Source: a virus
UHGV virus genome: UHGV-1443735
Length of the DNA stretch: 32,176 bases
Direction: 5' to 3' (one strand)
Under the pieces are notes generated by a model, which was given only the letters and a program-made list of their open reading frames with translations, ran no database searches and had not been told where the DNA came from. The position numbers and the translations under genes are program-made. Of the stretch, positions 3,073 to 15,258 are shown piece by piece (position 1 is the stretch's first letter; each line of letters opens with the position of its first letter).

Positions 3073-3361
3073 TACTGATAGCGCCATAGCGTGAGCGGTA
3101 ATTACGCAGGCGCGGGTCGATATATTCAGGGAAGTGGGTATATGTGGCTTTGCGGAATGGTCGGATTGATGTCTGGTAAATTCGCTCGCGTTCTTCTTTC
3201 TCTGCAAGCCATATACAATGGCGAAATTCCTTTTCCTCTTTCGTTTCCTGCGGTAGCGACATTATCAGGTCGTAGTTTTTTCTGAATTTATCCAGCACCT
3301 CCGATACGGAATTGCCGGAACAGCGGCGCGGGTCATCCGCACCATACAGAGGCGCTGGCAT
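3065..3361 (-). CDS. hypothetical protein (98 aa)
   Basis: ORF immediately downstream of the SSB-like gene; AAGG-like RBS upstream of the ATG. Confidence 0.55.
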
Positions 3362-3384
3362 AATGGGAGCCTTATTTTCAGTAA

Positions 3385-3972
3385 TCAGAAAGGAGGGTAA
3401 TCGTTCTGGCTGTAACCATAATCATCTGCATGATTCTGGCTTACGTTTTTAGAGCGATTGTCTTTATCTTTGAGATTGGCAACCATGTTGGCGATAGTTT
3501 CTGGTTGCTTGCCTTCTGCCTTTTCTTTAAGGGTTTGACCTGTTTGTGCAATAAACGGGATGCGTATTTCCATCTGGTAGCTGTCTGCGCCAGTCTTTTT
3601 GTTTGTGGTTAATACTTTCTGAAGCACTAACCCGATTTTCTTTCCATGAAATTCAGGTGCAACAAATTTACTGGCGGAAACCATATGCTGCGTTAATTGT
3701 CCAATCCCGGCACACCCCATCATGGCGTGAACGACATTTGCGCCAAATTTGTTTTCCGTTCCGTCATTTTTCTGAACACAGACGCTAAGATATTGGATTT
3801 TACGTCCGTCGTCGGATTCGCCAGAAAACTCAATAAATTTGGCTCCTTTTTCTGATTGCTTTAGTTCTGCTTCAGTAATGGTAATGATATGAGCGCCAGT
3901 TTCGTTAATAAAACCACCTTGCCCTGCGGTCAGTGCTGCTTCTTCGTTATAAGTAAAAATCACGTTGCTCAT
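3385..3972 (-). CDS. phage SSB-like ssDNA-binding protein, probable partner of Sak4 (195 aa)
   Basis: C-terminus DDYGYSQNDYPPF resembles the acidic SSB tail ending in (D)IPF. Start overlaps the stop of the upstream ATPase gene (ATGA). The pairing of Sak4-type ATPase with a cognate SSB is known from phage recombination modules. Confidence 0.6.
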   Translation of the reverse strand: MSNVIFTYNEEAALTAGQGGFINETGAHIITITEAELKQSEKGAKFIEFSGESDDGRKIQYLSVCVQKNDGTENKFGANVVHAMMGCAGIGQLTQHMVSASKFVAPEFHGKKIGLVLQKVLTTNKKTGADSYQMEIRIPFIAQTGQTLKEKAEGKQPETIANMVANLKDKDNRSKNVSQNHADDYGYSQNDYPPF

Positions 3973-4649
3973 GCGGCGTTTTCCTTAATTTGATGAACAT
4001 TATTGATGCCGTAGTAATCACAAACAGTGGCATCGACGAAAGAGAGATCGTTATCAATCTCATTGGAATCAAACATTCCCATTGGGGATTTAACAGTGTC
4101 TGCACCGTTGTTTTTCGTGGTGAAAAAGAACTGGTCATCGCGGGTAAGAGTGCGAAGAACTATAGTAAACATGCCTTCGACAGTGATTTTCTCGTCCAGC
4201 ATTTTGCCGATAGTTTTCATTTTCACGCGCCCCATAGGGGTTTCTTCGGTGTGCGCAAGAAAATAGACTCTCAGGTCATCAGGTGCATCCTGTGCAGCCT
4301 TAATCACCTCCCATGCGTGGCGGCCTATCTCAGTAAATTTATCAAACGATTTTTCTTCTGAGCGGCGCATAAACTCATTGCTCATCACATACTGGAAGTC
4401 ATCAACAATAACGATTCTTTTCCCGTATTCGTGAGCACGCTTAATTACGGCAACTATTACGTCCCATTTGTCAGTGGTAACTACGGTTCCTTTTTTTGCT
4501 CTGGCATCCCATGCCAGCCATTCTTTTGATTTAAATGGTAGCGGCTTGCCTATTGGTTTTATAAGTATTGCTTCCTCTGGATTGATATTTCTCATGCTGG
4601 TTGATTTTCCGGTGCCAGACTCACCGAGTATTAATGTCGCAGTTCCCAT
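3969..4649 (-). CDS. sak4: Sak4-like RecA-fold ATPase (AAA_24 family) (226 aa)
   Basis: N-terminal Walker A GESGTGKS and Walker B-like IVIVDDF; size and single-domain architecture match phage Sak4-type recombination ATPases. Confidence 0.75.
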   Translation of the reverse strand: MGTATLILGESGTGKSTSMRNINPEEAILIKPIGKPLPFKSKEWLAWDARAKKGTVVTTDKWDVIVAVIKRAHEYGKRIVIVDDFQYVMSNEFMRRSEEKSFDKFTEIGRHAWEVIKAAQDAPDDLRVYFLAHTEETPMGRVKMKTIGKMLDEKITVEGMFTIVLRTLTRDDQFFFTTKNNGADTVKSPMGMFDSNEIDNDLSFVDATVCDYYGINNVHQIKENAA

Positions 4650-4956: not shown

Positions 4957-5095
4957 TTTTTGGAACTCCTGGCTGATTAAGTACGTCGATGAGTCGTTTC
5001 CATCCGTCACGTAATTTACGGGTGATTCGTTCAAGTAAAGATTCATTTAATTGGAAGGCACCCATGCGAGCGCCTCCCGCGATTGCGTAAATCAT
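4949..5095 (-). CDS. cIII: CIII-like protein (48 aa)
   Basis: Found by manual translation: ...ESLLERITRKLRDGWKRLIDVLNQPGVPKNG matches the conserved core of lambda CIII. AAGGA RBS upstream; below the ORF-track size cutoff. Confidence 0.75.
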   Translation of the reverse strand: MIYAIAGGARMGAFQLNESLLERITRKLRDGWKRLIDVLNQPGVPKNG

Positions 5096-5119
5096 GGGTG
5101 GTTCCTTATGTTGGTTTTA

Positions 5120-6088
5120 TTAGTAGGTTATTTTTGTTGCGAATACTTCGCCTTTTACGATGGCTGTTATGATATTTTTAGCAACATCTTCTGATGCGCC
5201 AACCTTGATAAGGTCAGCAAGTATTTTGTTATTTACTTCTTTCCGGTGAGCTTTATCCTTTGCTCTACACTCTTCTTCTTCCTTGATTCTTTTTTCTTCT
5301 GCTATTCTGGCTTGCTCTTTTGCTTCAGCCTCGCGCCGGATTCGTTCAGCCTCCTCCTGTGCTTTTCGGCGTTCTGCTTCAATTGCCGCCTGCTTTTCTC
5401 TTTCAGCTCGTTCTGCTGCCTCTTTTGCTTCGCGCTGTGCTCGTTGCTCGGCTTCAATGCGTTCACGCTCTGCACGTTCCGCTGCGGCCTTAGCTTCTGC
5501 TTCTCGCCTTGCTGCTGCTTCAATTTCGGCTTTTGCCTTTGCTTCGGCTTCTGCTCTGGCTTTCTCTTCAGCTTCTCTTTTTAAGCGTTCTTCATGCTCT
5601 CGCTTTTCCTGCTCCGCTTTGAGTCTTGCCTCTTCTCTTTGGCGGTCAAATTCGCGATCCATCAAAATAGCTATTTCATGGTCAGACTCAATTTGCTTTG
5701 CGAGAGCTTCAGCTGCTGCCTTAGCTTCTTCTTCGGCTTTAATCCGTGCCTGTTCCTCCTCATAATCAGTAAGAGGCTGGCGTGCCTTGGATTTCAGCTC
5801 ATCAAGGCGATCACGCACTGTCTTGCGGTTGGCATCAATTAGCTTTGGAATTTCCTTCAGTTCAGCAACAAGGTCTTTTCCAAGACCATCGAGATATGTT
5901 TTCGTCTGCGCAACTTTATACGCCAGAGAAGCGATCTCCTTTCTGCCCTTTGCCGTTGTGATATCAGGCACAAAGGACATAACTTCACGTTCAACCTTTT
6001 GAAGGATTTCTTCAATCTGGTCGGCAGACTGAAATACAGTCATTGCATTTGCTTTTTCAATAACAACTAAATCTGTTACTTCACTCAT
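5120..6088 (-). CDS. coiled-coil protein with TolA-like E/A/K/R-rich repeat region (about 322 aa)
   Basis: Start refined to ATG at 6088 with GGAGG at 5-nt spacing. The central ~130 residues are low-complexity charged repeats (AEAKAKAEIEAAARREAEAK...); N- and C-terminal regions are non-repetitive. Confidence 0.7.
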   Translation of the reverse strand: MSEVTDLVVIEKANAMTVFQSADQIEEILQKVEREVMSFVPDITTAKGRKEIASLAYKVAQTKTYLDGLGKDLVAELKEIPKLIDANRKTVRDRLDELKSKARQPLTDYEEEQARIKAEEEAKAAAEALAKQIESDHEIAILMDREFDRQREEARLKAEQEKREHEERLKREAEEKARAEAEAKAKAEIEAAARREAEAKAAAERAERERIEAEQRAQREAKEAAERAEREKQAAIEAERRKAQEEAERIRREAEAKEQARIAEEKRIKEEEECRAKDKAHRKEVNNKILADLIKVGASEDVAKNIITAIVKGEVFATKITY

Positions 6089-6100
6089 ATATCCTCCATC

Positions 6101-6127
6101 AAAAAAATCGCCCTCACATCGGAGGGC
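6101..6127 (-). terminator. rho-independent terminator (minus strand)
   Basis: 6-bp stem GCCCTC/GAGGGC with 6-nt loop, followed on the minus strand by a run of 7 T, immediately upstream of the RBS of the 5120-6088 gene. Confidence 0.6.
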
Positions 6128-6222
6128 AAAGAAGATTTCCAATAATCAGAACAAGTCGGCTCCTGTTTAGTTACGAGCGACATTGCTCCGTGTATTCACT
6201 CGTTGGAATGAATACACAGTGC

Positions 6223-6411
6223 TTATTCGTCATGCATTTCAGGTAATTCTTCGTATTCGACTCCCCATACGAGTTTACACCAAGTGACTCGCTCATATCT
6301 TTTACAAAAATCAGACCACATAACTTGTGTTCCATCATGGTTTGTTATTACTTCTGTAATATCACCAACACTAACAAAACTGGTATTAGAAGCAGTTATT
6401 TTTACTTTCAT
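6223..6411 (-). CDS. small hypothetical protein (62 aa)
   Basis: ORF whose start overlaps the upstream gene's stop (TAATG). Confidence 0.5.
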   Translation of the reverse strand: MKVKITASNTSFVSVGDITEVITNHDGTQVMWSDFCKRYERVTWCKLVWGVEYEELPEMHDE

Positions 6412-8614: not shown

Positions 8615-9256
8615 TCAGGAGAATTTCATCATCATCTGCACTGCTACGCCGATTATCTTGCAGTTGCCGTCGATTGGGATCAACGGATAGGCAGGGTTAA
8701 GCCCTTTCAGGTATTTGTTACCGCCATCAATGATTAGCTTCTTGAACGTGGCTTCATTAGCATCTGTCAGCTTCGCAACTACCAGGCTTCCATTAACGGC
8801 TTCCTTTCCAGTGTCGAACAGAACCAGCATACCCTCAGGAACGCTAAGGCCGGTAGGAGCTGTCATTGAGTCGCCCTGAACCCTGAGCCAGAAGGCGTCA
8901 CCGACAACGTGACAATCTGATTCATACCACTCATCCACTGCCTGAGGGTTGTACGGCTCTACGGCCTCACTCCATGCACCTGCGCTAACCCAGCTAATCA
9001 ACGGAAACTTTTCCCCTGGCTTGTATTGTCCCTGATAGTTGTCGCCAAAAAGCAGTTCTGCCGGAGCGACGCCCAAAGCTTTAGCTATTACCTCTGCGTC
9101 ATCAACACTAACGCTTCTGGTTCCTGATTCATAGTTGCCGATCCGAGATTGTGAAGCCCAGCCGCAAAGCTCCGCCAGCGCCTTCTGTGAAAGCCCTTTA
9201 TCTTCCCGTAATCGCTTGATACGCGCGGCGATAGTTTCTGTTCTGTTCATGCGCAT
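8615..9256 (-). CDS. cI: CI/C2-family prophage repressor (HTH_XRE N-terminal domain, S24 LexA-like C-terminal domain)
   Basis: HTH LSQKALAELCGWASQSRIGNYE, then a C-terminal domain (PLISWVSAGAW...VQGDSMTAP...LVVAKL...) with the Ser/Lys dyad, very similar to P22 C2. No RBS before the ATGs at 9256/9250, consistent with a leaderless pRM transcript. Confidence 0.9.
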   Translation of the reverse strand: MRMNRTETIAARIKRLREDKGLSQKALAELCGWASQSRIGNYESGTRSVSVDDAEVIAKALGVAPAELLFGDNYQGQYKPGEKFPLISWVSAGAWSEAVEPYNPQAVDEWYESDCHVVGDAFWLRVQGDSMTAPTGLSVPEGMLVLFDTGKEAVNGSLVVAKLTDANEATFKKLIIDGGNKYLKGLNPAYPLIPIDGNCKIIGVAVQMMMKFS

Positions 9257-9261
9257 TTTAT

Positions 9262-9323
9262 ATCACATTCCGTGGTTTAAGGCTTTACACGATTTGTGTT
9301 GACTATCAATCACAATATGTGTT
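9262..9323. promoter_or_regulatory. OR operator cluster: three sites of the same family
   Basis: Sites at 9262-9276 (ATCACATTCCGTGGT), 9286-9300 (TACACGATTTGTGTT) and 9309-9323 (ATCACAATATGTGTT), between the divergent cI and cro genes. Confidence 0.6.
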
Positions 9324-9328
9324 TAATA
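9299..9328 (+). promoter_or_regulatory. pR-like early rightward promoter
   Basis: -35 TTGACT (9299-9304), 17-18 nt spacer, -10 TTTAAT/TTAATA (9322-9328); overlaps two OR sites; cro RBS AAGGA follows. Confidence 0.5.
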
Positions 9329-9360
9329 AAGACTGAGTGAACTAGCTCTTAAGGAAACCT

Positions 9361-9576
9361 ATGAACAACATTGCCAACGAACGGAAAAAGCTTGGCATCA
9401 CTCAATCTGCGTTAGCAGGCGCGTGTGGCTGGAACCAGTCCCGCTTAGCTAACTACGAGTCAGGTATCCGGACTCCAGATTTAGAGTCGTGCCGTCGCCT
9501 GGTAAAGGCGCTGAATAAATTGGGGAGCAAGACAACGCTAGATGGCTTGTTCCCGCCGGAACACAAAGCCGCTTAA
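9361..9576 (+). CDS. cro: Cro-like HTH (XRE-type) repressor (71 aa)
   Basis: HTH LGITQSALAGACGWNQSRLANYESG; first gene rightward of OR, divergent from cI. Confidence 0.8.
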   Translation: MNNIANERKKLGITQSALAGACGWNQSRLANYESGIRTPDLESCRRLVKALNKLGSKTTLDGLFPPEHKAA

Positions 9577-9584
9577 GACATTCC

Positions 9585-9616
9585 CGCTCTTACACATCCC
9601 CGCCCTGAAAAAGGGC
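9585..9616 (+). promoter_or_regulatory. nutR: nutR (boxA CGCTCTTAC, boxB GCCCTGAAAAAGGGC)
   Basis: Both boxes match lambda nutR as I recall it (boxA 9585-9593, boxB 9602-9616); the following leader up to cII looks lambda-like (tR1 region). Confidence 0.85.
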
Positions 9617-9695
9617 ATCAAATTAAACCACACCTATGGTGTATGCATTTATTTGCATACATTCAATCAATTGTTATCTAAGGAAATACTTACAT

Positions 9696-9989
9696 ATGGT
9701 TCGTGCAAACAAACGCAACGAGGCTCTACGAATCGAGAGTGCGTTGCTTAACAAAATCGCAATGCTTGGAACTGAGAAGACAGCGGAAGCTGTGGGCGTT
9801 GATAAGTCGCAGATCAGCAGGTGGAAGAGGGATTGGATTCCAAAGTTCTCAATGCTGCTTGCTGTTCTTGAATGGGGCGTCGTCGACGACGATATGGCTC
9901 GATTGGCACGACAAGTTGCTTCGATTCTCACCAATAAAAAACGCCCGGCGGCAACCGAGCGTTCTGAACAAATCCAGATGGAATTTTAA
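9696..9989 (+). CDS. cII: transcriptional activator CII, lambda type (97 aa)
   Basis: MVRANKRNEALRIESALLNKIAMLGTEKTAEAVGVDKSQISRWKRDW... matches lambda CII; RBS TAAGGAAATACTTACAT-ATG. The ORF-track start at 9636 is an upstream extension. Confidence 0.92.
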   Translation: MVRANKRNEALRIESALLNKIAMLGTEKTAEAVGVDKSQISRWKRDWIPKFSMLLAVLEWGVVDDDMARLARQVASILTNKKRPAATERSEQIQMEF

Positions 9990-10010
9990 CTGCTTTCTAT
10001 GGAGTTAATT

Positions 10011-10811
10011 ATGGCAAAAAAACCTACACCAGACCAGGTAAAAAAGATTCGTTCCGGCATTACCAAGAAAATACGGTTTGAGGTTTTCAAGCGCGATGGC
10101 TTCAAATGCCAGTACTGTGGGAGTTCTGCGCCAGACGTCATCCTTCATGTCGACCATATCAACCCAGTTAGCAAGGGTGGCGATAACGACATGATGAACC
10201 TTATTACTTCTTGCGATAGTTGTAATGGCGGGAAAAGCGACAAACTGCTCAGCGATAACTCAATAATGGAAAAGCAAAGGCAGCAACTCCAGGAACTTAA
10301 TACCAAGCGAGAGCAACTGGAGATGATGATCAAGTGGCGAGATGGTCTTAAGAGCCTGAAAGACGATGTTGTTGATATTGTCGCTACCAAAATTGACGAC
10401 TGCATTGCGCCATTTACTGTTAATGACAATGGGCGAAAATCTATCAAGAGATGGCTTCGAATATATAAGCTTGAAGAAATCCTCGATGCGATTGAGATTG
10501 CTGCAGACAAAAAACTCACCCAAGAAATAACCCATGAGCTTACTGGTGAATTCTTTGAGTACATCCCTCGCATAGCAGCGACAAAAAGAAAACCGCCAAA
10601 AGAACAAAGGATTCTATACATCAGAGGAATCCTTAAAAACCGCATATATATCAATCAAAACCATGTAATGAGTTATCTCAAGGCATGGCTTTCATACGAC
10701 TTAGATCTCGATGAACTTACTGAGTTTGCGAAAACAGTACCTAACTGGACAACGTTCAAGGAGTGGGTATCTGAACGCATTCGTGAAGCTCAGGAAGAAC
10801 TCCCGTACTAA
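10011..10811 (+). CDS. HNH endonuclease (N-terminal HNH domain, uncharacterised C-terminal domain; about 266 aa)
   Basis: HNH motif CQYCGSS...HVDHINPVSKGG...CDSCNGGK; start refined to ATG at 10011 with GGAG RBS. The gene is AT-rich compared with the lambda-type cII flank. Confidence 0.8.
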   Translation: MAKKPTPDQVKKIRSGITKKIRFEVFKRDGFKCQYCGSSAPDVILHVDHINPVSKGGDNDMMNLITSCDSCNGGKSDKLLSDNSIMEKQRQQLQELNTKREQLEMMIKWRDGLKSLKDDVVDIVATKIDDCIAPFTVNDNGRKSIKRWLRIYKLEEILDAIEIAADKKLTQEITHELTGEFFEYIPRIAATKRKPPKEQRILYIRGILKNRIYINQNHVMSYLKAWLSYDLDLDELTEFAKTVPNWTTFKEWVSERIREAQEELPY

Positions 10812-10822
10812 AGGTGGACAAA

Positions 10823-11710
10823 ATGGCACGTTCAAGAAATATCAAACCAGGCTTTTTCACCAATGATGAATTAGCTGAGTGTTCTCCATATGCCCGTCTC
10901 CTTTTTGCCGGGTTATGGACTATTGCTGACAAAGAAGGGCGGTTGGATGATCGCCCAAAGAAAATTAAAGCAATGGTACTGCCTTTCGATGATGTGGACT
11001 GCAATGATCTGCTTCAGCAACTTCACAGTCACAAATTCATCAATCGATATCAGGTAAATGGCGGCTCATATATCCAAATCAATAACTGGAAAAAGCACCA
11101 GAACCCTCACTGCAAAGAAGCGGCCAGTGAGATACCAGAACCAGTAGAGAATAATAACAGCATCCTGCAAGTACAGTGCAAGGACGATAAAGAGGAAGAG
11201 AAGGAGGATACAGAATCACTTCAAGTCATTGAAAACAATGAAGCACCAGAAAAGCACCATGCAAGTACAGTGCAAGAACAAGTTGAGAACAGTTTAAATC
11301 CTGCTGATTCCCTTAACCTGATTCCTGATTCCCTTAACCTGATTCCTGATTCCCTTTCTAACACCCAAGCCGCTGACGCGACTTGTGAAGGGGGTGGGGC
11401 TGATGTCCATAAAATTTCAAGTCGCTATGCATTCGAAGGAAATATCGTTCGGTTAAACCACAAGGATTACGAAGCATGGAAGCGCCTGTATCCGAACATT
11501 GACCTGAATTACGAGCTGGAAAGGCTGGATATCGAATTTAGCCATGAGAAGCCAAAGAACTGGTTTATCACTGCCAGCCAGAAACTCAGCTACCAGAACA
11601 AGCAGGCGTTATCCAGACCGGTACGCAAGGTTGCTAATGGACTTAAGGCTGAAAACTTTGCCACCAAGGATTACGGACAAACTGAAATGCCTTCATGGGC
11701 GCAGGAGTGA
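10823..11710 (+). CDS. replication initiation protein, O-like, with internal iterons (about 295 aa)
   Basis: Position after cII and before the DnaC-like loader; internal direct repeats encode SLNLIPDSLNLIPDSL. Start refined to ATG at 10823 (AAGGTGGA RBS); the ORF-track start at 10814 is a GTG. Confidence 0.7.
   Translation: MARSRNIKPGFFTNDELAECSPYARLLFAGLWTIADKEGRLDDRPKKIKAMVLPFDDVDCNDLLQQLHSHKFINRYQVNGGSYIQINNWKKHQNPHCKEAASEIPEPVENNNSILQVQCKDDKEEEKEDTESLQVIENNEAPEKHHASTVQEQVENSLNPADSLNLIPDSLNLIPDSLSNTQAADATCEGGGADVHKISSRYAFEGNIVRLNHKDYEAWKRLYPNIDLNYELERLDIEFSHEKPKNWFITASQKLSYQNKQALSRPVRKVANGLKAENFATKDYGQTEMPSWAQE
11304..11355 (+). repeat. putative origin iterons inside the O-like gene (CTGATTCC... 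repeated 5 times)
   Basis: Direct repeats CTGATTCCCTTAAC / CTGATTC in tandem within the initiator gene, as with the lambda ori iterons inside O. Confidence 0.6.
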
Positions 11711-11712
11711 AC

Positions 11713-12558
11713 ATGACGCTGGATGAAAAGATCTCCCAACTGGAGAAAAAACTTGCAGAATTGAGTTCTCCGCCAATTGCTATCGAGCATACAGCTGTAG
11801 AAATTGGCACTGGCATCTGTGAAAAACACGGTGAGTTTGAGCAGCGTAACCGTTACTCGACTGGGCCAATTAAGTTTGCCTCAAGACCTAGCGAATGCCC
11901 GGAATGCATGAGAGATGAGCTTATTCGGCTACAGGCAGAGAAGATTAAAATCGACGAAGAATCACGTAAGCGCAATGTCGAATTTCTGTTGAATAATCTT
12001 GATATTCCTGAACGATTCAAGGGTTGCACACTACAGAACTACGAGCCAGTCAACGACGATGCAAAGAGAGTGCTCAGGGTGTGTCAGGCATACGCCAGCA
12101 AATGGCCTGAGAGGTTACAGAAAGGCGGTGGGCTGGTTATGTGTGGAAAGCCTGGTACTGGAAAGAATCATCTTGCACTGGCTATCGCCCGGCACGCAAT
12201 TACGGAACATCAAAGCTCAGCTATTTTCACAACGGCGCTGAAAATTGCCAGAGAATATAAATCAACATGGTCGAAAAACTCCACCCGCACTGAGGATGAA
12301 GTGATCCGACAGTTCACTAAACCTGACCTGCTAATTATCGATGAGGTTGGTGTGCAGTTTGGAAGCGAGGCGGAAAAGATGATCATGTTCGAAATCATCA
12401 ACACCCGCTACGAGCGCATGAAGCCAACAATCCTGATTAGTAATCAGAGCAAAGATGAACTTTCGGCATTCATTGGTGAGCGTGTTATTGACAGGATGAA
12501 TGATGGCGGAGGGTGCACTCTTGCGTTTACATGGGATAGTTACAGGAGCAGATCGTGA
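11713..12558 (+). CDS. DnaC-like helicase loader (IstB-like ATPase) (281 aa)
   Basis: Walker A GKPGTGKNHLA and Walker B LLIIDEVG; start refined to ATG at 11713 with AGGAG RBS overlapping the O-like stop. Confidence 0.85.
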   Translation: MTLDEKISQLEKKLAELSSPPIAIEHTAVEIGTGICEKHGEFEQRNRYSTGPIKFASRPSECPECMRDELIRLQAEKIKIDEESRKRNVEFLLNNLDIPERFKGCTLQNYEPVNDDAKRVLRVCQAYASKWPERLQKGGGLVMCGKPGTGKNHLALAIARHAITEHQSSAIFTTALKIAREYKSTWSKNSTRTEDEVIRQFTKPDLLIIDEVGVQFGSEAEKMIMFEIINTRYERMKPTILISNQSKDELSAFIGERVIDRMNDGGGCTLAFTWDSYRSRS

Positions 12559-12845
12559 CTGGAAAAGAAATCATCCTGGAATATCTGAAAACTCATGAAC
12601 AATTCTCCCCACATGAATTAGCACTGATCACCGGAATACCAAATAACAGAATCGCTCAAGCAGCAAGGCATATGGTGAAACAAGGACATTTGAGTGTTGT
12701 TGAGCGTAAGTGGAAGACGGTTATTTATGCAAAACGCAAAGTGAAGAAGGAGCCAATTAAAAGAAATCCAGATGGTACGGGGTGGGGATGTGCAAATCCA
12801 ATGACGGCGTTTATTAATAGGGCGCTTATGGAGGTAAGGCAATGA
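12555..12845 (+). CDS. small winged-helix-like DNA-binding protein (96 aa)
   Basis: GTG start overlapping the DnaC-like stop, with AGGAG 7 nt upstream. HTH-like segment SPHELALITGIPNNRIAQAARHMVKQGHL; function unverified. Confidence 0.5.
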   Translation: MTGKEIILEYLKTHEQFSPHELALITGIPNNRIAQAARHMVKQGHLSVVERKWKTVIYAKRKVKKEPIKRNPDGTGWGCANPMTAFINRALMEVRQ

Positions 12846-12931: not shown

Positions 12932-13147
12932 ATGAGTACGATAGCTGAGCTTGTCAGGGCTAATTTTCGTGAAGAGTTGGTGCGTTGGTATCGGTATCGT
13001 TCATCGTCCAGTTTGCCGATTGATGAGTTGTATGAGCATTCACCTGCTGCACGACGCTATCCGCGTGACCGTGTTCTTCGACGGTTGTCCAAACTCAACA
13101 ATGAGTTTCAGCGCAACAGAATTATTCGGAGTCTGGATTTAAAGTAA
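12932..13147 (+). CDS. hypothetical nin-region protein (71 aa)
   Basis: ATG preceded by a GGAGG RBS immediately after the terminator. Confidence 0.55.
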   Translation: MSTIAELVRANFREELVRWYRYRSSSSLPIDELYEHSPAARRYPRDRVLRRLSKLNNEFQRNRIIRSLDLK

Positions 13148-13962: not shown

Positions 13963-14129
13963 TTGACCAAAATCGAAGTTACGAACAAGAAAGCGTCGAG
14001 CGAGCTTTAACGTGCGCTAACTGCGGTCAGAAGCTGCATGTGCTGGAAGTTCACGTGTGTGAGCACTGCTGCGCAGAACTGATGAGCGATCCGAATAGCT
14101 CAATGTACGAGGAAGAAGACGATGAGTGA
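13959..14129 (+). CDS. ninF: NinF-like protein (56 aa)
   Basis: Found by manual translation ([44 protein letters not shown]...); GTG start overlapping the ninE stop; below the ORF-track cutoff. Confidence 0.65.
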
Positions 14130-14631
14130 TGTTAAAGAAAAAGATATCCCCGGCTTTGAGGGTATATATAAAGTAACTGAAAATGGAGACATCATTTCAT
14201 GCCGTAAATCAAAAAAATTATCTCATGGCATTAAACCAGGAGGATATGCATTTGTCGGTCTGTATCCAGGTGGCGGGAAAAGACCATCATATAAAATGGT
14301 TCACAGAATTGTTGCAGAAGTATTTATTGATAACCCAGATGGCAAACCGGAAGTTAATCACAAGGATGGAAATAAACTTAATAATAAAGTTGAAAATCTT
14401 GAGTGGGTAACGCGAACAGAAAATGCGAAACATGGATTTGATTCCGGATTGCTTGTTCATGGGTTTAATCATCACTTCTGCAAACTAACGCCAGAACAAG
14501 TGAAATCAATATATAAATCAAAAGGCAAATACAGAGATATAGCCAAAGAATTTGGTGTTTGTGCGCAGACAGTGTGCAACATAAAAAACAAATCAGCGTA
14601 CCGACGTTTTTTGGAGGGGATTGATGTTTAG
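14122..14631 (+). CDS. HNH homing endonuclease (NUMOD4 plus HNH_3 type, C-terminal HTH) (169 aa)
   Basis: NUMOD4-like IPGFEGIYKVTENG and HNH motif NHKDGNKLNNKVENLEW, with a C-terminal HTH-like segment. The start overlaps the ninF 3-prime end and the stop overlaps the DUF1364 start. AT-rich. Confidence 0.8.
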   Translation: MSDVKEKDIPGFEGIYKVTENGDIISCRKSKKLSHGIKPGGYAFVGLYPGGGKRPSYKMVHRIVAEVFIDNPDGKPEVNHKDGNKLNNKVENLEWVTRTENAKHGFDSGLLVHGFNHHFCKLTPEQVKSIYKSKGKYRDIAKEFGVCAQTVCNIKNKSAYRRFLEGIDV

Positions 14632-14899
14632 AAGCAAAAAATGGCTTCAGGCAGTCAGGGATATTGAATTTTGCGTTCTTTGCGGAAGATACGGAGTTCA
14701 GGCCGCTCATAGAAATGAAGGGAAGGGGGTTGGGATTAAAGTAGATGATTGCCTTACTGCTGCGCTATGTGTTGATTGTCATTCAAGAATTGATAATGGG
14801 AGAGATATGAGCAGGGAAGAGCGAAGGGCTGAAATGGATCGGGCCATTGTGCTTACCCTTAAAAAATTGGTTAACAATGGGAGGGTGTTTGTCCAATGA
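14624..14899 (+). CDS. DUF1364 (YbcO-like) putative zinc-binding nuclease (about 91 aa)
   Basis: Cys/His pattern CVLCG...AH...CLTAALCVDCH; ATG at 14624 with GGAGGGGA RBS; ATGA overlap with rusA. Confidence 0.6.
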   Translation: MFRSKKWLQAVRDIEFCVLCGRYGVQAAHRNEGKGVGIKVDDCLTAALCVDCHSRIDNGRDMSREERRAEMDRAIVLTLKKLVNNGRVFVQ

Positions 14900-15258
14900 A
14901 CGAATATCAGTTTGTGCTTCCATACCCGCCGTCGGTGAACACCTACTGGCGAAGACGGGGAAGCCAATACTACATCAGCGATAAAGGCCAGAAATACCGA
15001 AAAGATGTACAGCAAATAATCCGCCAACTCAAGTTAGACATTTTCACCAAATCACGACTCCGCATCAAAGTCATCGTAGACGTTCCGGACTCCCGCCGTC
15101 GCGACCTCGACAACATCCTGAAAGGTTTACTCGACTCCCTTATCCACGCCGGATTTGCGGAAGACGACGAGCAATTCGATGAAATTCGCGTAATTCGTGG
15201 TGTGAAAGTACCAGGCGGACGGCTTGGAATAAAAATCACTGAACTGGAGAACGTATGA
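14896..15258 (+). CDS. rusA: RusA-family Holliday junction resolvase (120 aa)
   Basis: Similar to E. coli RusA (...PPSVNTYW...VPDSRRRDLDNILKGLLDSL...GGRLGIKITEL). Confidence 0.88.
   Translation: MNEYQFVLPYPPSVNTYWRRRGSQYYISDKGQKYRKDVQQIIRQLKLDIFTKSRLRIKVIVDVPDSRRRDLDNILKGLLDSLIHAGFAEDDEQFDEIRVIRGVKVPGGRLGIKITELENV

Follow-up and report, generated by a model that had tools for sequence, protein, structure and literature searches.

A predicted HNH nuclease gene in an exchangeable slot between cII and the replication initiator of a lambdoid phage

The locus between cII and the initiator

We analyzed a gene of the virus genome UHGV-1443735 whose product is a predicted HNH nuclease and which lies between a lambda-type cII gene and a replication initiator gene of non-lambda type. 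The whole stretch of DNA, 32,176 nucleotides (nt) long, is called the window here. An earlier note, made from the sequence alone, had described this gene as an insertion at a module junction and had proposed that it encoded either a selfish nuclease of homing type or a defence nuclease. The main features of the locus are as follows.

9696..9989, plus strand: lambda-type cII gene (PF05269, E = 1.7e-48), the left flank
10001..10004, plus strand: GGAG ribosome-binding site (RBS), read from the sequence, 7 nt ahead of ATG 10011
10011..10811, plus strand: nuclease gene with an HNH core and a C-terminal domain (HNH-CTD), 266 amino acids (aa), in the longest open reading frame (ORF) from 9999; stop codon TAA at 10809-10811
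about 10014-10820, plus strand: swappable cassette, with boundaries taken from loci with other occupants
10812..10817, plus strand: initiator RBS AGGTGG, read from the sequence, directly after the stop codon of the HNH gene
10823..11710, plus strand: replication initiator gene, 295 aa from ATG 10823 (PHROG 17247, E = 7e-190)
10835..10860, plus strand: ultra-conserved block AGAAATATCAAACCAGGCTTTTTCAC, which follows the occupant-specific first codons (junction alignment of 80 alleles)

The ORF was confirmed at 9999-10811 of the plus strand and would give 270 aa if translated from its first ATG (9999). ATG 10011 is the start of the 266-aa protein and is the one used in the annotation of phage Louie. 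Upstream of cII lie a CI-like repressor gene, on the minus strand, and a gene for a Cro-like helix-turn-helix (HTH) protein. Beyond 9982-9985, in the last codons of cII, nucleotide homology to lambda and 434 is lost (megablast endpoints), which places the HNH gene at a module junction, as had been proposed. The initiator had no Pfam match, and the further PHROGs that it matched are also named "replication initiation protein." The AT-richness reported for the HNH gene is real, its GC content being 42.6% against a window mean of 48.0 ± 3.7% (800-nt windows), but it is marginal, since 11% of the windows are lower and the adjoining initiator gene is also low (44.7%). Promoter-like sites ahead of the HNH gene and plus-strand terminators flanking it were scanned for and not found, which indicates that the gene is embedded in the early-right (pR) operon.

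Protein architecture

Profile searches matched the protein to PF01844 (HNH; E = 1.1e-13, 51.6 bits versus a cut-off of 21.4) and to PF14279 (HNH_5; E = 3.6e-12, 46.5 bits versus a cut-off of 27.5). The HNH motif, CQYCG...VDHINPVSKGG.N...NLITSC..CNGGKSD, was thereby upheld, and so was the reality of the 266-aa HNH ORF. The catalytic residues and Cys4 zinc ligands (C33, C36, D48, H49, N63, C68, C71, and N72) were invariant in 47 of 47 diverse homologues. An AlphaFold2 model built from 47 homologues (predicted local distance difference test [pLDDT] of 87.7) showed an HNH core at about residues 30 to 80, a long helix and an all-helical domain. The beta-beta-alpha-metal fold is present, and the fold of the model matches those of HNH nucleases. 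These parts map to the DNA as follows.

10107..10247, plus strand: HNH catalytic core with a Cys4 zinc site, of the Cas9/IscB/McrA type (residues 33-79)
10257..10403, plus strand: single long helix (residues 83-131), with invariant R100, Q102, M105, and W109 (AlphaFold2 model and alignment)
10425..10799, plus strand: C-terminal seven-helix bundle (residues 139-263), with invariant Y203, I207, R211, and W246

In the model, the long helix looks like an element that may serve as a coiled coil or in dimerization. The C-terminal domain modelled alone was again a seven-helix bundle (pLDDT of 95.2). The C-terminal 180 aa or so had been left unassigned by the earlier note and remain so. Searches of Pfam, NCBIfam and PADLOC gave nothing for them even when the thresholds were permissive, and neither did the PDB or BFVD. 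An RNA-guided enzyme of the IscB or Cas9 kind was also considered and rejected: the IscB profile gave 60 bits against a cut-off of 175, there was no Rfam match in 9000-11800, the gaps flanking the gene measure 21 and 11 nt, and, unlike Cas9 and IscB, the protein has neither a RuvC domain nor a guide-RNA locus.

PADLOC matched the protein at the level of the HNH domain only (PtuB, ZorE, Cas9, and restriction enzymes, with E values of 1e-7 or weaker), and the neighbours are cII and replication genes. A prophage defence nuclease that protects the lysogen, for instance by McrA-like type IV restriction, is very improbable on this evidence. There are no partner genes, the C-terminal domain matches no defence model, and, unlike EcoKMcrA, the protein has no domain of the McrA type for reading modified bases. 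Moreover, a gene of the pR operon without a promoter of its own would, by the precedent of lambda, be silent in a lysogen.

A slot with alternative occupants

The comparison loci come from searches of which the best 80 matches were used (of at least 525 viral and at least 528 genomic matches) and are thus biased samples, in which ORF calls were heuristic. In the 79 viral contigs carrying the closest initiators, the position of the HNH gene was occupied by a T5orf172 gene in 59, by this HNH gene in 8, by a gene for a 134-aa protein in 8 and by other genes in 4. The slot was filled in about 76 of these 79 relatives; in 3, a cII-like or other gene appears to abut the initiator. The HNH gene is thus no universal core component of the replication module, and it was found in 31 phage records versus 104 for the N-terminal domain of the initiator.

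The slot of Escherichia coli OW1E2 (locus L091, 2810-3502) encodes a T5orf172 protein, which belongs to the GIY-YIG superfamily, and that of HK639 encodes a 134-aa protein of unknown function ahead of a homologous initiator. The T5orf172/MUG113 occupants have about 230 to 245 aa (loci L181-L254, mostly at about 3260-4001), and their stop codon abuts or overlaps the start of the initiator gene. The 178-aa slot protein of Hafnia phage yong1, gp27 (locus L003, 2956-3492; also L234), weakly resembles the central domain of the beta clamp of DNA polymerase III (PF02767, E = 2e-4, under the cut-off) and may be a mimic or a fragment of a clamp. No homology was detected among the C-terminal domain of the HNH protein, T5orf172, the 134-aa protein and the initiator by blastp, hmmsearch, or hhalign (probability of at most 1%). 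The sole hhalign match joined T5orf172 and the 134-aa family over 29 N-terminal residues and probably results from ORF calls over-extended into shared upstream sequence.

The edges of the slot are sharp on both sides. Homology to loci with other occupants breaks at about 9973-10013 and returns at 10821-10823. The RBS and the first three codons of the initiator gene are specific to the occupant, and the 26 nt of AGAAATATCAAACCAGGCTTTTTCAC that come next are common to all alleles. This block is likely to be the right-hand crossover point of cassette exchange, and it is also a candidate target of the nuclease. Substitutions conferring "immunity" on HNH-linked initiators were looked for and dismissed: the codons that vary with the occupant are the first three and no others, and this is better explained by where the crossover lies.

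Inheritance and selection

Replication modules that carry the HNH gene form a cluster with about 97% identity, and a difference of about 19% separates them from those in which the slot is occupied otherwise. T5orf172 and the 134-aa gene replace each other in backgrounds with about 95% identity. In a neighbour-joining tree of the initiators, the HNH or non-HNH state changed about 5 times, versus about 41 times with shuffled labels, and the HNH-linked initiators fell in four places within the enterobacterial clade (at least 4 to 5 switches). The gene has therefore been inherited mostly vertically together with the initiator, with occasional replacement of the cassette. Since it is passed on with the initiators of this lineage and the slot is hardly ever vacant, the idea of a recent insertion into a lambda-like cII-O junction had to be abandoned.

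In the closer comparisons, the HNH gene had a lower synonymous divergence (dS) than its right-hand neighbours; with locus L178, dS was 0.18 for the HNH gene, 0.45 for the initiator and 0.98 for the helicase loader. A co-conversion gradient was considered, as dS rises from the HNH gene through the initiator to the loader in some pairs; yet the identity profile is patchy, and the gradient was not used as an argument for homing. Separately, a patch of about 70% identity to loci L178-L180 covers 10950-11050, in the N-terminal domain of the initiator, between flanks of 96 to 99% identity (the 5' half of the HNH gene and the iteron region). Judging from these alignments, it is a local mosaic replacement within the predicted origin-binding domain.

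The ratio of nonsynonymous to synonymous divergence (dN/dS) of the HNH gene is about 0.05, which indicates strong purifying selection. The E. coli records number 22, all of them covering at least 80% of the gene length and 21 of them at 99% identity or more. A reading of the gene as inert or decaying, left over from an old insertion, would agree with the existence of sibling phages that manage without it, but it is hardly credible given the low dN/dS, the near identity of the E. coli copies and the invariant catalytic and zinc-binding residues.

Distribution of the family

The family is large: clustering at 50% identity gives more than 1,100 clusters, and members are spread over most bacterial phyla. 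Identical or near-identical genes are found in phages Louie and Dewey and in an Stx1a-converting phage, and the gene is present in 18 of 5,426 complete E. coli genomes. Full-length homologues with 38 to 57% identity occur in Pseudomonas phages (JBD44 and others) and in Vibrio, Komagataeibacter and Gram-positive Oenococcus phages, and the whole protein, including its C-terminal domain, is kept at this level across phyla. Among 72,556 plasmid records, only 6 carry a member of the family, all of them circular copies of one enterobacterial phage sequence (about 30 to 40 kb, or fragmentary), and a role as a component of plasmid replicons was rejected on these grounds.

The initiator family was found directly downstream in 22 of the 80 bacterial loci, and these 22 are taken to be prophages. 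A further group of 20 of the 80 genomic loci encodes "long forms" of about 417 to 444 aa with an extra C-terminal region, and no initiator adjoins any of them. Long forms (L116, L119, L128, L133, L138, L154, L163, L174 and others, at about 4990-6290) occur in Bacteroidota, Melainabacteria, Patescibacteria, a cyanobacterium, Dehalococcoidia and some Proteobacteria. Their additional 150 to 180 aa or so have no Pfam match and fall into one large family (12 loci), a second family (5 loci) and three singletons. The possibility that this extra region, of about 170 aa, was related to initiators was ruled out, as it is unrelated to them and absent from the phage loci.

Genomic loci without an initiator had no recurrent partner: their 104 neighbours matched 106 Pfam families and were mixed housekeeping genes. 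One such copy, in Ca. Electronema sp. (JBLWEN010000008; locus L010, 6001-6810), encodes a 269-aa member that stands alone in the conserved rpsB-tsf-pyrH-frr-uppS-cdsA-dxr cluster, with pyrH and frr as its neighbours in the same orientation, across gaps of 26 and 55 nt. Lone copies among housekeeping genes, which occur in many phyla, suggest that the gene can exist, and evidently move, as a single-gene unit.

An identical protein has already been deposited under the name "HNH endonuclease," and free-standing phage HNH nucleases are of a known kind. In the literature searched, we found no functional study of the HNH-CTD family, and its C-terminal domain, its pairing with initiators across distant phages and the multi-occupant slot appear undescribed there, as does the combination of these family traits with lone copies in bacterial operons.

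Linkage to replication initiators

The HNH protein retrieved 89 loci, 85 of them with a callable downstream ORF. In about 80 of these 85 phage or metagenomic loci, the HNH gene lies directly 5' of an initiator gene, often with an overlap of 4 to 8 nt. In nearly all 85, the downstream ORF has 250 to 330 aa and abuts the stop codon of the HNH gene or overlaps it by a few bases. It belongs to the initiator family of the window in 70 of the 85, according to an iterated hidden Markov model search. The other downstream initiators are of the HTH_36 type, several with a lambda-O-like C terminus, or of the DUF1376/YdaU type. The Oenococcus "DnaD-like" organiser proved to be a distant member of the initiator family of the window, and the placement next to the initiator holds in Gram-positive Oenococcus as well as in Vibrio and Komagataeibacter phages. 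The upstream neighbour varies: it is CII-like in about one third of the loci and elsewhere a methyltransferase, Erf/RecT, a helicase, an anti-repressor, or an unknown protein. The gene is therefore coupled to the initiator, its constant neighbour on the right, and the module junction falls at its own 5' end. The HNH and initiator genes were each found in 18 E. coli genomes, and their coordinates are adjacent among the matches listed.

The HNH protein and the N-terminal domain of the initiator both match PHROG 5718. This family and some Bordetella phage records suggest HNH-initiator fusions similar to one in E. coli 20AR0300 (NZ_CP195498; locus L092, 3010-4047). There, a 345-aa initiator contains an in-frame HNH domain (PF01844, E = 5e-13), inserted between the N-terminal domain and the iteron linker, and a free-standing 266-aa HNH gene lies upstream as well.

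One explanation of this linkage is a replication-accessory nuclease. Such a partner of the initiator would work at the origin or close to it, for example by nicking or breaking intermediates to begin rolling-circle or recombination-dependent replication. Sibling phages would fill this role with unrelated proteins, such as the T5orf172 nucleases. The position immediately 5' of initiators of several families in distant hosts speaks for it, as do the constant right neighbour beside a variable left one, the mostly shared inheritance, the equal counts in E. coli and the fusions. So do a slot that is nearly always filled, once by a protein resembling a beta clamp, and the strong selection, conserved C-terminal domain and intact state of the copies seen. 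But the gene is optional and replaceable by unrelated proteins, the slot occupants share no domain with one another or with the initiator, bar the one short match mentioned above, many intact chromosomal copies stand alone and far from replication genes, and the family is essentially absent from plasmid replicons. We also know of no need for a nuclease in theta initiation of the lambda or SPP1 type. On balance, we consider an accessory role possible but rather unlikely. The broader proposal, that HNH-CTD proteins and their T5orf172 substitutes form an unrecognized nuclease part of temperate-phage replication modules and act as an origin-proximal nickase or breaker that helps the initiator to start replication or to change its mode, would explain both the fusions and the placement before unrelated initiators from Proteobacteria to Firmicutes; we judge it unlikely.

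A second explanation is competition during lytic growth, with the nuclease serving the phage against co-infecting phages or satellites that use or hijack the same replication machinery. The model here is Odn of phage ICP1, in which T5orf172 is joined to a mimic of the RepA N terminus and which cuts the origin of a satellite. Nuclease-initiator chimeras of this type have been described as origin-directed anti-satellite weapons (PMC10448857, PMC9040626, PMC8263062), and an anti-satellite function has been proposed for the T5orf172/RepA_N nucleases of coliphages. Proteins combining HNH with the initiator N-terminal domain exist in the gene neighbourhood studied here, the predicted early expression alongside the replication genes would fit, and the slot alternates between two nuclease superfamilies. 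The window protein, however, unlike Odn, has no initiator-like DNA-binding domain (hhalign probability of at most 1% against the initiator profile). Of the two, it is the 345-aa initiator of 20AR0300 that combines a nuclease with an initiator domain. Solitary chromosomal copies would be left unexplained, and PADLOC recognizes the HNH domain only. Competition of this kind therefore seems distinctly unlikely.

A homing-type cassette as the favoured reading

We tentatively favour a third explanation, in which the gene is an intact, early-expressed, free-standing HNH cassette of homing type at a boundary of genetic exchange. The alternation of HNH and GIY-YIG occupants in one slot, the sharp breakpoints, the patchy occurrence and the lone copies in bacteria make it, in our view, a plausible choice without raising it above a working preference. 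Phage HNH and T5orf172 genes beside essential genes, including those of the replisome, have been treated as homing-type nucleases that mark exchange boundaries (PMC10448857, PMC9040626, PMC8263062).

In such a scheme, the slot would extend from the end of the immunity module, with the cII stop codon and the RBS, to the first codons of the initiator. Transcription starting at pR would pass through cII into the gene, whose translation would depend on the GGAG ahead of it. Its product would then cut, and probably nick, related genomes with a different cassette or none, possibly close to the origin or to the conserved beginning of the initiator gene, with either a nick or a double-strand break as the lesion. 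Recombinational repair would copy the cassette together with the adjacent replication module and so bias their inheritance. Homing of this kind would explain the position at an exchange boundary, the linkage to an essential gene, the replacement by T5orf172/GIY-YIG genes and the lone copies in bacterial operons.

Several observations weigh against homing. Initiators of at least three families are found downstream, so the linkage is positional and not to one DNA sequence. The slot is nearly always filled, some of its occupants are not nucleases, and no empty-slot allele was found in E. coli. Identity in sliding windows forms a patchy mosaic without a clean co-conversion gradient, and the tree points mainly to vertical co-inheritance. 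No NUMOD, AP2, IENR1, HTH or CapR-like zinc finger was found in the C-terminal 180 aa, and the conservation of this domain across phyla is odd for a DNA-recognition domain that would need different targets. No decayed copies were seen, and purifying selection is strong. The homing-type nuclease of the earlier note is the best supported of the explanations, through slot alternation, sharp breaks and lone operon copies, but it is unproven.

If the gene is a homing-type cassette, it adds a further case in which nuclease cassettes mark the joints of mosaic phage genomes; in lambdoid phages, the joint in question separates the immunity module from the replication module. Competition between HNH and GIY-YIG-type cassettes for one site could then be studied at this locus in a tractable E. 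coli system, with Louie and Dewey carrying the HNH cassette and HK639 and the OW1E2 prophage carrying others. The pattern of the family (conserved C-terminal domain, placement before initiators, lone copies) offers a handle on how the nuclease recognizes its target. If instead the nuclease is a replication accessory, the locus bears on the switching of replication mode in temperate phages.

Comparison with known systems

The HNH gene resembles those of free-standing phage HNH homing enzymes (T4 MobE, I-HmuI-like NUMOD + HNH_3 enzymes, and ICP1 hdg/IPA-HNH) in being a single-gene cassette whose product has its HNH at the N terminus and a non-catalytic domain at the C terminus. It also resembles them in lying beside a conserved essential gene at an exchange boundary, in its patchy occurrence and in its replacement by other nuclease cassettes in siblings. 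It differs from them in that its HNH is of the Cas9/IscB/McrA zinc-ribbon type (PF01844/PF14279) and not HNH_3, and in having a helical bundle with no known relative in place of a NUMOD, AP2, IENR or zinc-finger module. A further difference is that its family is under purifying selection, without decay, and mostly co-inherited vertically with its neighbour. The T5orf172 genes of the relatives occupy exactly the same slot before the same initiator family, so that the association with the initiator is common to both, but the proteins are unrelated.

HNH enzymes of the gp74 type, found in HK97-like phages, have genes beside cos and terminase and function in packaging, and many of them are nickases. 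The window protein is like them a small phage HNH protein that would act on the DNA metabolism of its own phage, but its gene is in the early-right operon beside the initiator, and it has a large extra domain. This comparison draws on PMC3592412 and on general background.

Other features of the replication module and the nin region

Three further features surround the HNH and initiator genes.

9938..9965, minus strand: oop-type intrinsic terminator within the 3' end of cII (terminator scan)
11304..11356, plus strand: three exact copies of CTGATTCCCTT at 21-nt spacing, in the linker of the initiator (repeat search), presumed origin iterons
11695..12558, plus strand: DnaC/IstB-like helicase loader (PF01695, E = 1.8e-18; PHROG 50); the Louie annotation starts it at 11713

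The terminator is presumably that of lambda oop. In lambda, the region of the oop promoter lies downstream of cII; here, the 5' end of the HNH gene is found in its place, and no promoter-like site was found there. The repeats of CTGATTCCCTT are presumably the iterons of the origin. They encode the peptide repeat DSLNLIP, and this motif is kept even in Pseudomonas homologues (protein alignment).

Downstream of the loader, a small ORF at 12555-12845 has a weak MarR-like match (E = 0.004) and is named "MarR family" in the annotation of phage Louie; a DUF7301 protein follows at 12932-13147. The nin region contains a second nuclease gene (14122-14631, plus strand), which encodes 169 aa with the canonical homing-type combination of NUMOD4 and HNH_3. 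The phage therefore hosts homing-type elements and carries at least two different types of HNH cassette. This second gene is followed by a 92-aa ORF at 14621-14899 (weak DUF968) and then by RusA at 14896-15258.

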